This document shows positions 12,682 through 32,027 of a stretch of 32,027 nucleotides of DNA, piece after piece. The position numbers and the translations under genes are program-made. The DNA comes from a virus. Lineage: Duplodnaviria; Caudoviricetes. The notes under the pieces are model-generated. The model saw nothing but the letters and a program-made list of their open reading frames with translations, did no database searches and had not been told where the DNA came from. The stretch is from the IMG/VR virus record IMGVR_UViG_3300009684_000013, positions 1 through 32,027 of that record; one strand, 5' to 3'. Numbering within the stretch: the stretch's first letter is position 1; each line of letters begins with the position of its first letter.

Positions 12682-12747
12682 TTGGTTTTGTTACACAAAG
12701 ATAAACCTTTTGTTAATACAAAAATCAATTTCCTAAACTTTTTTTTA
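12682..12747 (-). repeat. 66-bp promoter-containing direct repeat, copy 1 (TATCTTTG at 12696-12703)
   Basis: 62/66 identical to 13194-13259 by manual alignment. Confidence 0.9.
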
Positions 12748-13188
12748 AATTATACCTTCATTTGCTAATGATAAATAACCTTCATTAGTAATTATAAAAT
12801 GGTCTAGTAAATTGACATCTAAAAAAGAACAAGCATTTTTTATCTTTTTAGTTATTTCTATATCTGCATTACTTGCTTTTAAATTACCTGAAGGATGATT
12901 GTGTGCTAAAATTATACTTGATGCTGCACTTTGTAATGCTATTGTCATTATTACTTTCGGGTCGCATATAACACCTGAAAATCCACCACTTGCAACCTTA
13001 TGATAACCAATAACTTGATTAGCTCTATTTAAACATATCATAACCATTTCTTCTGTCCATAATATAGTATCACTATCAAATATTTTTTTTAATATCAATT
13101 CTACTTCTTCTGGAGTTTTTATTATTATTTTATCACCTTTTGATACAGTAACTTTAATTTTGATTTTTGGTAATTTTAACTTTTTCAT
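12745..13188 (-). CDS. radC: RadC-like JAB/MPN-domain protein
   Basis: EEMVMICLNRANQVIG...ILAHNHPSGNLKASNAD...LLDHFII, the canonical RadC HxHPSG-x(4)-S-xx-D motif. Confidence 0.9.
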   Translation of the reverse strand: MKKLKLPKIKIKVTVSKGDKIIIKTPEEVELILKKIFDSDTILWTEEMVMICLNRANQVIGYHKVASGGFSGVICDPKVIMTIALQSAASSIILAHNHPSGNLKASNADIEITKKIKNACSFLDVNLLDHFIITNEGYLSLANEGII

Positions 13189-13193
13189 TTTGT

Positions 13194-13259
13194 TTGGTTT
13201 TGTTATACAAATATAAACCTTTTTTTAATACAAAAATCAATTTACTAAACTTTTTTTTA
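13194..13259 (-). repeat. 66-bp promoter-containing direct repeat, copy 2 (TATATTTG at 13208-13215)
   Basis: 62/66 identical to 12682-12747, offset 512 bp. Confidence 0.9.
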
Positions 13260-14825: not shown

Positions 14826-15605
14826 TTAATCTAAACCTTTGAATGCTTTTAATGGATAAAATATTAATGAATTCCTATAACCGCCATCATAAGTTGGTAT
14901 TATGGGTGTTACTGCGTGCATATTCCTCCAAGCAGGATAAACCAAAATAGAATTATCTTTTTGTCCTATTGTTGCATTATAATCAGGTATATGTAAATCA
15001 CCACCCTTTGAATTTAACCTTTTGCATATAATTACATTTACACAATTTTGAATATTACCATTATCTCTATGAAATGGAGCTGATATATTAAAATTTGAGA
15101 TAGAACTTGTAAATAATTTACCAAATCTCCATTTATCTTTAACATCACTAAACATTTCTATTTGTTTTTGATATTGTGATGGCAATATTTTATTTATTAA
15201 TTGTTCACTTTCTTTAGCTAATAGCATCATTGCTTTTATATAAGTTTGAGCAGATTTTACTGAATGCACCGAACTATAATTTGCATATGCTCTTTTCATA
15301 TGAGGTTTCGGTGCTATACTTCCTATTATAGTAGAATATTGGCTAATCCATTTCAAACCTTTTTGTTTTGCTTGTTCTTCAGTTCCCCTATTCATTTTTG
15401 ATTTAGGAACTCTATCGCTCAGGAATTCATTATTTGCCAAATCCGCAAGTTTGCACATTTTATCAGGCATTTTATTTAAATAAAAACCTATTGGCTCTTC
15501 ATCAGCATAAAATATACAATCCTCGAATATGTTAGCATCAATATATTCGCATTCTTCGCCGATTTTTCTATTGTGTTGTATTGTATTTAAATCTATTTTT
15601 TTCAT
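14826..15605 (-). CDS. TET/JBP-family Fe(II)/2-oxoglutarate dioxygenase (start revised to ATG 15605)
   Basis: FTSSISNFNISAPFHRDNGN (HxD), GGDLHIP, WRNMHAVTPI (distal His) and YRNSLIFY (2OG-binding Arg); ATGA overlap with the upstream GT stop. Confidence 0.8.
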   Translation of the reverse strand: MKKIDLNTIQHNRKIGEECEYIDANIFEDCIFYADEEPIGFYLNKMPDKMCKLADLANNEFLSDRVPKSKMNRGTEEQAKQKGLKWISQYSTIIGSIAPKPHMKRAYANYSSVHSVKSAQTYIKAMMLLAKESEQLINKILPSQYQKQIEMFSDVKDKWRFGKLFTSSISNFNISAPFHRDNGNIQNCVNVIICKRLNSKGGDLHIPDYNATIGQKDNSILVYPAWRNMHAVTPIIPTYDGGYRNSLIFYPLKAFKGLD

Positions 15606-16504
15606 ATAATTAAAGATTTCCATTTTTGATTTTCTTCTTCCGAAGGTATTAAAGATGAACTAATTGATGGTAATGTTATGGCTGAAACCAATTCACTTTC
15701 ATTTTTAACAGCATAACAATTAACACCATGAATATATAAACTATTTTTTACATTAGTCCAATTTGAATGTAAAATTAATGTACAATTATGATATTCAGCT
15801 TCTAAAAAAGTATATTGTGTACCACCTCCATCTTTATTAATAGTAGACATATCTACTAAAAATTTAGTTTCTGCATATAATCTACTAATATCTTGCAAAT
15901 TTTTTGAATAATATCCTTTATAATATTTATCAAAATTCAATTGCTTCAATTTATGAAAATAATAAATATGATTTTTATATCCAAATATTTGTATATCTGC
16001 ACCTAAATTGTTGGCTTTACATATCAAATCTATATTTTTATCAAAATCAACTCTAGAAAGTGACCTATTATATTTTTTTTGTAAATCATATTTAGGATAT
16101 TTATAAAAAGGATGTTTTAAGAAAGTATTTTCAATTCCAATTTTATTTAATAATATATGGACGGTTTCCCTTATAGTTATAACTCTATTATTTTTTGCGA
16201 ATTTTATAACCTCTTTTGATAATTCTGTAGGGTCATGTATAATTATTACTGAATTTTTAAAATTTTGTAACAAACTATAATGTGCTTTATCTATTGCTAC
16301 AATTATAGCATTATTAAAATGTTTTATAGCCTCTTTTTTGATATTTTTATATATAATATCTGCATAAAATTGACCACCACCTTTGAAAGTTTCTTTTATT
16401 TTTATTACATAATTATAGTTCAGAATTTTACATAAATGATATGAAAAAGAAACCCATCCGCCATATTGTGAATTTGATAGATAAAATACTTGATTATTAT
16501 ACAT
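15602..16504 (-). CDS. GT-B fold glycosyltransferase associated with TET/JBP (start revised to ATG 16504)
   Basis: YGGWVSF N-terminus, IIIHDPTE, SRVDFDKNIDLICKAN and DMSTINKDGGGTQYTFLEA (nucleotide-sugar-binding E motif); TAATG overlap with the ParB stop. Confidence 0.75.
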   Translation of the reverse strand: MYNNQVFYLSNSQYGGWVSFSYHLCKILNYNYVIKIKETFKGGGQFYADIIYKNIKKEAIKHFNNAIIVAIDKAHYSLLQNFKNSVIIIHDPTELSKEVIKFAKNNRVITIRETVHILLNKIGIENTFLKHPFYKYPKYDLQKKYNRSLSRVDFDKNIDLICKANNLGADIQIFGYKNHIYYFHKLKQLNFDKYYKGYYSKNLQDISRLYAETKFLVDMSTINKDGGGTQYTFLEAEYHNCTLILHSNWTNVKNSLYIHGVNCYAVKNESELVSAITLPSISSSLIPSEEENQKWKSLII

Positions 16505-17079
16505 TATATTTTTTCTTTTTCTGCTTTTAAATATTCCATAATCATTCCACCTACATAAGCCTTTTGGTCTCTCCAAAATTTTACCAACTCAAATGCTTCA
16601 TCATAATGCTCTGCTTCAAATTCTATTTGTATGGCTTTTTTTACACCATTAGACAAGTCATTTAACTCATTCGATAAATCCACTTCATCTAATATAGAAT
16701 AATCAACATCTGTTTTAAATTCTGGAACATTTAAACCCCAATCATTTAATTCTTCATTATCCCATTGGTTAGCAATATTTTCCCAATCCCACTCTCCATA
16801 CCCAACATTATCTTTTATGATAAATTCCTTCTGTTGTTGTTCTGTTAGTGAACTTGCCTTTATAATTGGTATTTCTTTTAAACCTGCCTCTTTACAAGCA
16901 TTTAAACGCATATTACCACCCAATACAACCATGTCATCATTTACTACAATAGGTCTTAATTTTAGCATCTCTGGGAACTCCTGAATGGATTTTACAAGTT
17001 GCTTAAACTTGTCATCTTTAATAATTCTTGGATTGTTAGGATTAGCTTTTATTTCATTAATCTTAGTTTCAATTATCAT
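16504..17079 (-). CDS. ParB/Srx-like N-terminal domain protein (start revised to ATG 17079)
   Basis: IKANPNNPRIIKD...LRPIVVNDDMVVLGGNMRLNA...FIIKDNVGYGEWD, the type of phage ParB found upstream of terminases. Confidence 0.85.
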   Translation of the reverse strand: MIIETKINEIKANPNNPRIIKDDKFKQLVKSIQEFPEMLKLRPIVVNDDMVVLGGNMRLNACKEAGLKEIPIIKASSLTEQQQKEFIIKDNVGYGEWDWENIANQWDNEELNDWGLNVPEFKTDVDYSILDEVDLSNELNDLSNGVKKAIQIEFEAEHYDEAFELVKFWRDQKAYVGGMIMEYLKAEKEKI

Positions 17080-17599
17080 ATTTGTATATTTTAGAATAAT
17101 CTGTTGGTGCAGTAATATGTTTATATATATGGTAACCCTTATTTGCAAAAAATATATCCCACTCTTCTTGCTCTTTAATATTTATATGCCCCCAAGATTC
17201 ATCCCATTCAGGTATTCTCTGGCTTGTTGAACTAAATAAGATATAGTTAGGTTTAATCTTTTTAAATAAAGAATTTAATTGTTTATCTGTCATATGCTCT
17301 GCAACCTCTATAAATACCATTATATCAGTAGTGATAGGTTTATCTATTATACTTAAATGTGCAGCATTTTGGGTTATATATTCTTTATGTGCATCAAATT
17401 TCTCCCATATTACAACATCAAATCCTGCTTTATGAAAAGCATCTGCATAAACTCCTGTACCTGCTCCATAATCTAAAACTGATTTTCCTAATCCTAATAC
17501 CTGTTGAGCAGTATTGAATGCCAATGATTTAAACATAGGGTTATCAAAACTGATTCCCATCTCTAACTCTGCCTTAAGAAATTCTTTATCCGTTATCAT
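17069..17599 (-). CDS. Class I SAM-dependent methyltransferase (small-molecule/sugar type)
   Basis: VLDYGAGTG motif I, FIEVAEH and GHINIK; no PC (C5) or DPPY/NPPY (amino-MTase) catalytic motif. Confidence 0.8.
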   Translation of the reverse strand: MITDKEFLKAELEMGISFDNPMFKSLAFNTAQQVLGLGKSVLDYGAGTGVYADAFHKAGFDVVIWEKFDAHKEYITQNAAHLSIIDKPITTDIMVFIEVAEHMTDKQLNSLFKKIKPNYILFSSTSQRIPEWDESWGHINIKEQEEWDIFFANKGYHIYKHITAPTDYSKIYKYDN

Positions 17600-23783: not shown

Positions 23784-24516
23784 TAATTTTATTATTAAAA
23801 TACAAAGCTACTGCCATTCTGCGACAATTTAATTCCATTTGGTCATCATCTTTAAATTCAGCAATCAAATTTTTTTTATCTTCGTGGTCTGCTCTGTCTA
23901 TTCTTCTCTGCATTGCCTCTTCAGTTTTACTTACAATATAGTCCACATCATTACCTACTTCTCCCCTACTATGCAGGATATTAAAGGTTTTTAAGCAATA
24001 AAATATTGACCACCATTGTTTAAACTTTTTATAACTATCAAATGAAATTTCTATAATATCATCTTCAGGAAGTGAAGGTTTTAATTGTACAGGCTCTTTT
24101 ACTTCTTCTACAAAGTGTTTATGTGATGCCCATCTTGCGTATGCAGATAACATTCTGTTTAGGTATAGTACTGAAAATGATTGATATGTTTCATTATCGT
24201 AATCAAGTTGTCCTCTGGATGCTAAAGTAAAGGCAAGGTCTAATTCTCCAATAGTTAAGTTTATATAATGGCTTCTAAGTTCAGCCACAATTAATTTCAT
24301 TGACATTTCATCTGGATGCTTCTCTCCTTTAATTCCCAATAGCATCAATCCCATTTCAATCACTTGCAGGATGACAGGAATATTAACTGCTTTTAGTTTT
24401 TCAGTTTTCTTCGCCTGTAAAAAAAGGTTGTTTTCCTTCTGCTGCATCCCATTCGTTTGCCCATTTGAGATTTCTGTCGTAGTGTTCTTTGTAATAATCT
24501 GAAGTTGATTTTCCAT
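23767..24516 (-). CDS. Replication accessory protein (helicase loader/inhibitor-like)
   Basis: Directly follows the initiator, in a lambda O/P-like arrangement; LTIGELDLAF...FSVLYLNRMLSAY helical domain. The call is positional. Confidence 0.45.
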   Translation of the reverse strand: MENQLQIITKNTTTEISNGQTNGMQQKENNLFLQAKKTEKLKAVNIPVILQVIEMGLMLLGIKGEKHPDEMSMKLIVAELRSHYINLTIGELDLAFTLASRGQLDYDNETYQSFSVLYLNRMLSAYARWASHKHFVEEVKEPVQLKPSLPEDDIIEISFDSYKKFKQWWSIFYCLKTFNILHSRGEVGNDVDYIVSKTEEAMQRRIDRADHEDKKNLIAEFKDDDQMELNCRRMAVALYFNNKINELTT

Positions 24517-25150
24517 TTTGTTTAGTTGTTGTTTTTGTAAAGTTATTGTTATTTATCCAAACTGATAACATTTTCTGTTTCCAATTTTTTACCCTGTTGC
24601 CTTTAGCATCATACCAATCAGCAACCTCATAATATTCGTATGCTTGTTTTGCCTTTTCTTCTGTACTTTCTTTACTAATAAAAAAATCAATTACTTCCTG
24701 TTGTGTGGGTTTGCTTTGTATTCTATTAGTCTTTTGTATAATATTAGTCTTTAGTAATACATTAGTCTTTAGTATAGGACTACTTTCACCGATATCGGTA
24801 AATTCCGAAGTCGGTGTTTGCCCATCTCGGTGTTTTTCGGATTCGGCAGGGATATCATATACAACGTGATTCCATCCCATAAACTTACCTGTATTTTTAT
24901 CGTGAACTCTAACAGATATAATATATCCTTTTGTTTGTAGTGCCTTAAATGTTTTATCTATCGTTCCTTCTTTATCTGGAAGTGAGTTATATAAATTTTG
25001 TTTATAAATAACCCAATCAGCAGGAAGGCTTAAGAGATAACTTAATAAACCTTTTTCAGATAATGTTAATTCTTTTGATTTAATTACATCATTTGGAAGA
25101 GTAGTAAACCTTTCAGTTGTTCTTGATTTTATTATCTGTCCTGTATTCAT
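24401..25150 (-). CDS. Replication initiator/replisome organizer
   Basis: N-terminal FTTLPNDVI...LTLSEKGLLSYLLSLPADW...LQTKGYI wHTH, a low-complexity linker with repeats, and C-terminal PTQQEVIDFF...YEYY...VKNWK. Confidence 0.8.
   Translation of the reverse strand: MNTGQIIKSRTTERFTTLPNDVIKSKELTLSEKGLLSYLLSLPADWVIYKQNLYNSLPDKEGTIDKTFKALQTKGYIISVRVHDKNTGKFMGWNHVVYDIPAESEKHRDGQTPTSEFTDIGESSPILKTNVLLKTNIIQKTNRIQSKPTQQEVIDFFISKESTEEKAKQAYEYYEVADWYDAKGNRVKNWKQKMLSVWINNNNFTKTTTKQNGKSTSDYYKEHYDRNLKWANEWDAAEGKQPFFTGEEN
24725..24847. repeat. Putative replication origin: three ATTAGTCTTT units at 18-bp period plus a TCGG/CCGA cluster
   Basis: Units start at 24725, 24743 and 24761; palindrome ACCGATATCGGT at 24788-24799; TCGG at 24795, 24811, 24827, 24837 and 24843. 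Confidence 0.65.
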
Positions 25151-25155
25151 AATAT

Positions 25156-25240
25156 AAAAATCCTAACAGGGATTGGTTGTTCAGCACCGCACCCCATTAG
25201 GATAGCAAGATTTTAATAATATGAAGTCTGAACCCTTCAT
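25156..25240 (-). ncRNA. Predicted structured 5' leader with two hairpins and complementary loops
   Basis: AUGAAG-GGUUCAGA-CUUCAU, then AUCCUAAUGGGG...GGU-GCUGAACA-ACC...CCCUGUUAGGAU-UUUU; loops GUUCAG and CUGAAC are complementary. Confidence 0.55.
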
Positions 25241-25245
25241 TTCTA

Positions 25246-25253
25246 CAAAGATA
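25246..25253 (-). promoter_or_regulatory. Bacteroidota -7 promoter element (TATCTTTG) for the initiator
   Basis: Matches TAnnTTTG, 5 nt upstream of hairpin 1. Confidence 0.6.
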
Positions 25254-27316: not shown

Positions 27317-27342
27317 GGTTTTGTTTAAGCAAAGATAAACCT
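27317..27342 (-). promoter_or_regulatory. Early promoter (TATCTTTG at 27330-27337), a diverged relative of the 66-bp repeats
   Basis: AGGTTTATCTTTG...ACAAAACC is shared with 12682-12747. Confidence 0.7.
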
Positions 27343-31793: not shown

Positions 31794-32027
31794 TTATTTG
31801 CGTGTTACAATGTTAGACTTCCATTCGTGCCTACAAGATTCTAAATGAATATTTGTATTTGGCTTTGTGTACCAACCACCTTTTCTATCCCAAACAGAAT
31901 ATCCAAGCCTTGCACTTAATTGTTCAATCTCTGACCTGCTATAAAGTTTATTAGCATTCATCATTTCTACACAAAAAGGTCTTGAATTAGGTTTATCCTT
32001 ATCACTAAATCCTGTTTTCCACTCATA
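31794..32027 (-). CDS. Portal protein, 3' end (continuation of 1-1647 across the junction)
   Basis: In frame with 1-1647; reads SRPFCVEMM...GYSVWDRKGGWYTKPNTNIHLESCRHEWKSNIVTRK, with the stop at 31794-31796. Confidence 0.85.
   Translation of the reverse strand, partial: YEWKTGFSDKDKPNSRPFCVEMMNANKLYSRSEIEQLSARLGYSVWDRKGGWYTKPNTNIHLESCRHEWKSNIVTRK
31905..32027. repeat. Terminal direct repeat, copy 2 (123 bp)
   Basis: Identical to 1-123. Confidence 0.95.

Follow-up and report, generated by a model that had tools for sequence, protein, structure and literature searches.

In IncI/IncB plasmids, a leader peptide is coupled to translation of the rep gene. Immunity of P4, through CI RNA, seqA and seqC, has been described as resting on an RNA that is cut from the same untranslated transcript and causes termination ahead of the replication genes (PMC4825925), and for the guanidine-IV riboswitch it has been proposed that loop pairing hinders a terminator, growth of the stem shortening the linker (PMC9788692, PMC11611296). 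Two unnamed elements found mostly in freshwater viruses, DNAVirus_187 (49 nt) and DNAVirus_4859 (106 nt), are furthermore listed directly 5' of DUF1376, DUF4373 and HTH_36 (PMC10690425). The leader described here bears on how non-model Bacteroidota phages dose their replication proteins.

The leader lies in a stretch of 32,027 nt that was analysed as a whole (the window), a virus record of about 32 kb with terminase, protease and endolysin-like genes; no integrase family was found among the 48 window ORFs scanned with Pfam. Promoter motifs and relatives suggest a host among the Bacteroidota. An initial annotation had placed a promoter, two hairpins and a U run on the minus strand, and all of these elements were verified there with their coordinates, as was the statement that the two loop cores are exact complements. 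The features are as follows.

25643-25254 (minus): upstream gene with a DnaA C-terminal HTH (Pfam PF08299)
25253-25246 (minus): -7 promoter element of Bacteroidota type, TATCTTTG (sequence; consensus per PMC6847099)
25240-25221 (minus): hairpin 1, ATGAAG[GGTTCAGA]CTTCAT, 6 bp with an 8-nt loop (sequence, fold, covariation)
25240-25181 (minus): candidate leader ORF of 19 codons, from hairpin 1 to loop 2, not universal (ORF counts)
25233-25228 (minus): code word a, GTTCAG, in the loop of hairpin 1 (sequence)
25220-25204 (minus): linker, 17 nt, A/U-rich (sequence)
25203-25160 (minus): hairpin 2, terminator-like, with 12 bp, a 3x3 internal loop, 3 bp and an 8-nt loop (sequence, covariation)
25203-25192/25171-25160 (minus): lower stem of hairpin 2, 12 bp including two G-U
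Above the 3x3 internal loop (minus): top of hairpin 2, GGT[GCTGAACA]ACC
25184-25179 (minus): code word a', CTGAAC, in the loop of hairpin 2 (sequence)
25160-25151 (minus): U-rich tract TTTTTATATT, from hairpin 2 to the start codon (sequence)
25150 (minus): initiator ATG
25150-24401 (minus): replication-initiator-like gene, 249 aa (PHROG 186, 4707, 428)
24715-24776 (no strand): three direct repeats with 18-nt spacing, inside the initiator gene (sequence)
24516-23767 (minus): overlapping downstream gene, function unassigned by match (phrog_26016)

In the -7 consensus of Bacteroidota promoters a G stands at -5 (PMC6847099), and setting the G of TAnnTTTG at that position places the predicted transcription start near 25241, one base ahead of hairpin 1. 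The TATCTTTG-type motif by itself is not enriched within the window (46 found, 55 expected). The stop codon of the DnaA C-terminal HTH gene, a gene present in 10 of 10 relatives searched, abuts the promoter element, and at the far end of the leader a T5 run occupies 25160-25156, its first T also closing the stem of hairpin 2. The earlier reading of the downstream gene as an initiator gained support from the PHROG families, a tblastn match to rep of Lactococcus phage TP901-1 (E 3e-11) and the internal repeats, which are likely iterons of an internal origin; the gene at 24516-23767 is likely part of the same operon. In the initiators of the window (24401-25150), L021, L055, L221 and L393, the leader and the C-terminal domain are retained and the N-terminal domain is exchanged, with at least five unrelated types.

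Elsewhere in the window, -7 motifs at 12696-12703, 13208-13215 and 27330-27337 are intergenic and have an AT-rich block upstream in common, without a hairpin leader, and a terminator-like hairpin is located at 27430-27403. A RadC-like JAB gene (12745-13188) adjoins the terminase, and a cluster of Tet/JBP-like oxygenase, ParB-like and methyltransferase genes (14826-17599) is possibly concerned with DNA modification. One and the same stretch of protein is encoded at positions 1-230 and 31794-32027, which would fit a terminal repeat or a circular assembly.

The 91-nt leader folds as the two hairpins, with -27.1 kcal/mol. Among 5000 dinucleotide shuffles, loops with at least six complementary bases arose in 13 and an equally good fold energy in 19, with none matching both, and of 6388 windows slid along the genome only 6 passed the loop test, two of them at the leader site itself. 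Hairpin 1 is missing from the MFE of a longer 141-nt fold because those 141 nt take in bases 5' of the predicted start. In prefix folding, hairpin 1 was stable at all lengths and loop 2 was exposed ahead of closure of the lower stem. Both window loops have the G-N6-A form originally noticed, although this form is not conserved in the relatives.

Pairing between the loops had been proposed from the window, with covariation in the regions upstream of initiator homologues as the check, and such covariation was indeed found, strongly supporting the claim. Relatives of the initiator were gathered from viral, metagenome and genome collections, complemented by a pattern search; a first set of 59 upstream regions contained a strong downstream hairpin in 43, yielding 25 distinct loop-2 windows. 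A blind finder recovered own-loop pairing of at least 6 Watson-Crick bp in 17 of the 25 distinct leaders, as compared to 2 of 600 cross combinations of loops pairing over at least 6 bp, and no permutation out of 100000 reached 17 cognate pairings. Six of the eight leaders missed have a complement of 6-9 bases upstream that the finder misplaced. Pairs were then counted in an alignment of 14 leaders, picked for equal loop size: five of the seven loop-loop pairs exhibit double changes, the share of paired cells being 98%, and no helix is without a double change. Across all four helices, 95.1% of 391 cells are paired, a level that none of 500 shuffles attained, with slid controls at 34-45%. MAFFT/RNAalifold on 19 leaders recovered hairpin 2 and not hairpin 1, because the stem lengths differ.

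The wider leader set holds 65 members, of which 11 with three-site, extra-hairpin or mis-called forms were dropped for the fold, U-tract and antisense counts, and 5 ahead of the leader-ORF counts. Of the 65 leaders, 55 have a TAnnTTYG motif at most 25 nt away from the code word, and 57 have their two code words 37-49 nt apart. Folding favours the sense over the antisense strand in 50 of 51 leaders, an indication of RNA. Hairpin 2 had also been likened to an intrinsic terminator, and this view is supported by at least six T among the 8 nt 3' of its stem in 41 of 51 leaders (the tract being interrupted in some; control start regions in these genomes average 25% T and are A-rich), but a simple terminator scan of the window did not return hairpin 2 among its results. 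The leader is a real, strongly covarying RNA element, and a regulatory role is likely.

We also asked where the element occurs. Of 145 related initiator loci, 61 were positive for the leader in a promoter-anchored test, for which motifs on the opposite strand gave 2 of 472. A hairpin-anchored test, from which the window's own record (L342) was excluded, recognised it in 60 out of 145 distinct regions upstream, compared with 1 among 347 other ORFs. At 84 of the 145 loci the promoter-anchored test did not detect the leader, 56 of these having at least 800 nt upstream. Fifty-one of the 61 detections stand directly ahead of the initiator; the remaining 10 are more than 30 nt upstream, nine of them at 249-626 nt. 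In eight whole genomes the detector fired at 7 of 344 promoter motifs, all seven being the leader site, and missed G005. The leader is common among related aquatic phages, where it is present once per genome, at the replication operon. What follows it varies: in Muminvirus a small ORF and a helicase are downstream, the N-terminal domains after the leader are unrelated (HTH_36, DUF1376, Lin1244_N, DUF6291), and in L059 a MUG113/T5orf172 gene is inserted between leader and initiator. Regardless of which gene is the first, the element stands at the start of the replication operon. The initial annotation had it controlling the initiator; the downstream gene is initiator-like, but the element belongs to the operon head and not to the initiator.

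Cultured carriers are phages of Flavobacterium and Cellulophaga, with the following codes.

morran9-1: code GTGAGAAG
lillamy9-1: code GTGAGACG
mumin9-1 and snusmum6-1: code GTGGAACG
elemoA: code TGAGAGC
phi19:1: code GTACGAC
phi18:3: code CTTCTGAC

Three of these, morran9-1, lillamy9-1 and mumin9-1, share one host (Flavobacterium LMO9) and have different codes, rendering both the mechanism and any code-specific cross-talk directly testable; the LMO6/LMO9 phages, including the morran, lillamy and mumin carriers, are described as virulent (PMC7077304). In phi10:1, which the detector missed, the phi19:1 code was seen by eye behind a TATATTTA element. A match in Alistipes phage AS73P1 was rejected as it is without hairpin 1. 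A prophage check of 301 genomes of the genus of G011 found the leader at 1 of 19 loci, one already known; these loci were weak protein matches, so that the check carries little weight. The first pattern scan of the collections proved mostly chance, 0 of 119 matches surviving the filter, and was replaced by a longer pattern that gave 24 loci. In one lake RNA run, 6% of the words were present, from contigs of relatives only and with patchy cover that gave neither start, end nor strand of a transcript.

Further observations were made at individual loci. The annotated 47-aa hypothetical gene gp42 of morran9-1 (L236:1897-2040) occupies the place of the leader and may not be a true gene, and at L200:941-1051 a leader of like scaffold is followed by a 331-aa gene that does not resemble the initiators. 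The Rfam DUF805b motif is found 5' of a ParB-like gene in morran9-1 (L236:578-612) and lillamy9-1 (L423:222-256). Variant leader forms were likewise observed. In L018:2810-3000 and L020:2773-2963 the partner of the hairpin-1 loop is a bulge in the 3' arm of a long terminator. Upstream of the initiator in L307, L309, L314, L315 and L320, a 5' stretch of 9-11 unpaired nt has its complement within the terminator hairpin, a P4-like arrangement, and the letters of the complementary segments change among them. Finally, L274, L276, L278, L326 and L333 apparently have two separate complementary word pairs upstream of the initiator.

On balance, we favour a transcription attenuator as the function of the two-hairpin leader at the head of the replication operon of Bacteroidota phages, with loop pairing hindering completion of the terminator. 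Hairpin 1 would fold first at the 5' end and then wait, and loop 2 would exit the RNA polymerase some 12 bases ahead of possible closure of the terminator stem. If the loops pair first, the polymerase would read on into the initiator, while unpaired loops would lead to release of an RNA of about 90 nt. Carrying both code words, the released RNA would be the simplest competitor in trans, and such competition would exert negative feedback on initiator dose, with cross-talk only between phages of the same code. A crude geometric test is compatible with strain: in 29 of 51 leaders even a fully stretched linker falls short of the length needed, to which weak A-U extensions of the stem contribute, while in L021, whose leader is identical to that of the window, it is long enough (ratio 1.35) and the constraint is not binding. 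A correlation of linker with stem was set aside, as it is negative only because weak A-U extensions consume linker.

Control of translation is equally placed, as hairpin 2 ends about 10 nt from the initiator AUG in the window. In a translational switch, hairpin 2 would mask the site where ribosomes land on the first gene, to be opened by loop pairing or by a ribosome on the short leader ORF, as in the rep leaders of IncI/IncB. Structure at the start codon reduces initiation in Flavobacterium (PMC6847099), 16 of 21 dereplicated leaders have an open frame from the hairpin-1 AUG as far as loop 2 (43% expected; 8 and 5 for the other frames), and 10 of 63 leaders have a leader-ORF stop that overlaps with the initiator AUG. 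However, an AUG is present in hairpin 1 of 36 of 63 leaders and lacking in the other 27, the ORF ends vary, and in the cultured Lillamy and Mumin phages the ORF stops after 2-8 codons. The conserved U-tract is moreover atypical for start regions of these genomes, and in three cultured phages, lillamy9-1, morran9-1 and phi19:1, hairpin 2 and its U-tract lie about 40 nt ahead of the first AUG, so that termination fits better than start-codon masking. We consider a translational switch rather unlikely.

It is improbable that the released RNA of about 90 nt is itself the functional product, be it a small RNA of compact structure, a primer or an oligomer, with downstream control being incidental. 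The element does run from a promoter to a terminator-like end, and hairpin 2 reaches a height of 16-20 bp-equivalents in most leaders. Nevertheless, the leader is nearly always situated where the replication operon begins, as a single copy in each genome; the likely origin repeats are about 400 nt downstream of the leader, and the loop sequences are not conserved.

The loop sequences in fact fall into 30 code classes among 65 leaders, a few of them being mis-called words. Among 53 leader pairs that differ by at most 12% outside the code, pairs which are not independent of each other, 35 have the same code and 18 a different one, mostly through several paired changes. Comparison of the window with L221 gives 6 differences in 12 code positions and 2 in 79 elsewhere, L018 and L020 have 3+3 compensating differences and none elsewhere in 191 nt, and L001 combines an initiator 99% identical to that of the window with a different code. 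That close relatives differ mainly in the loops suggests selection for new codes: purely intramolecular pairing should change slowly, yet the codes switch, and selection for new specificity would imply a partner that acts between molecules. By eye, the loops were also compared with the tRNA-anticodon and YUNR loop motifs, and both readings were rejected, as the close relatives L221, L285 and L282 change those positions.

A separate antisense or trans-encoded phage RNA of IncI or C4 type could be such a partner, fast code turnover being typical of these systems; the RNAI of IncK1 and IncK2, for example, differ by five nucleotides and are compatible (PMC10724649). An antisense promoter motif was however found at only 1 of 50 gene starts (first 250 nt) and 2 of 50 leaders, with a background of 251 of 1436 windows, and the motif test found none in the leader region of the window. 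Nor did a third site switch with the code in 13 genome-pair comparisons, which covered aligned parts of 16.5-28.5 kb each with seeds of at least 6 nt. Two code-like words in the terminator stems of G005 and G010 did not emerge as code-switch sites and were taken as chance. We judge a separate RNA very improbable, and with neither an antisense promoter nor a third site found in these tests the leader RNA itself is left, by exclusion, as the simplest carrier of the code. Highly implausible is an action at the level of DNA, either with the words as inverted repeats that serve the initiator or the upstream HTH protein as an operator, or with the hairpins as ssDNA structures. Although the words flank a promoter beside two DNA-binding genes, the identical leader of L021 precedes a different N-terminal domain, the near-identical initiator of L001 goes with another code, and the G-U pairs favour sense-strand RNA.

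The attenuator can tentatively be extended to an RNA zip code, by which lytic Bacteroidota phages may count genomes of their own kind through the leader RNA, an idea we hold to be possible rather than probable. The terminated leader RNA would jam loop pairing in genomes with the same code of 6-8 letters, shutting the replication operon without a protein repressor, ligand or antisense gene, and rivalry of co-infecting relatives would drive code change. If action in trans is real, the leader would provide protein-free, self-coded control of copy number and co-infection, and about 30 natural RNA switches, nearly orthogonal as judged from the 2 of 600 cross pairs, for engineering of Bacteroidota.

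How does the leader compare with known systems? Neither the window nor the leaders of 20 related loci had a significant match in Rfam, in agreement with the first reading, which assigned no known RNA family. A literature search, with most subscription papers out of reach, found no description of the leader. It is possible that DNAVirus_187 and DNAVirus_4859 represent it, catalogued without a name, a comparison made by description only. Their downstream families are the same (PF14297 presumably being DUF4373 renamed), and their lengths resemble those of hairpin 2 and of the whole leader. The tables of PMC10690425 list 3 and 1 covarying bases, respectively, and terminator 'no', and the parts of that report considered here leave loop-loop pairing unmentioned.

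With the IncI-alpha/IncB/IncK plasmids the leader shares RNA pairing upstream of the initiator, where a few loop letters set specificity (PMC10724649). The analogy to IncI/IncB drawn at the outset holds to this extent; those plasmids use an Inc/RNAI antisense RNA, whereas the leader is without an antisense promoter in the motif test and without a universal leader peptide, and its loop-loop pairing is onto a terminator-like stem. With P4 it shares premature termination ahead of replication genes, here predicted, and some relatives are three-site or pair a 5' segment to a bulge; in P4, an RNA derived from the same leader can terminate transcription in trans. The P4 effector is complementary to two flanking targets, whereas the form in the window has two sites only and no third covarying one, and P4 is a satellite phage; the leader resides in phages described as virulent and in a genome with no integrase found. 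Guanidine-IV (Gd4v) is alike in that the loop of a 5' hairpin pairs with the loop of a terminator or terminator-like hairpin with a U-tract. Its loop nucleotides are however highly conserved and bind ligand, while those of the leader vary freely, in about 30 classes, and the genes downstream are here those of phage replication, with no Rfam match. The leader belongs to none of the three families, IncI/IncB, guanidine-IV and P4; rather, it is built from their logic.
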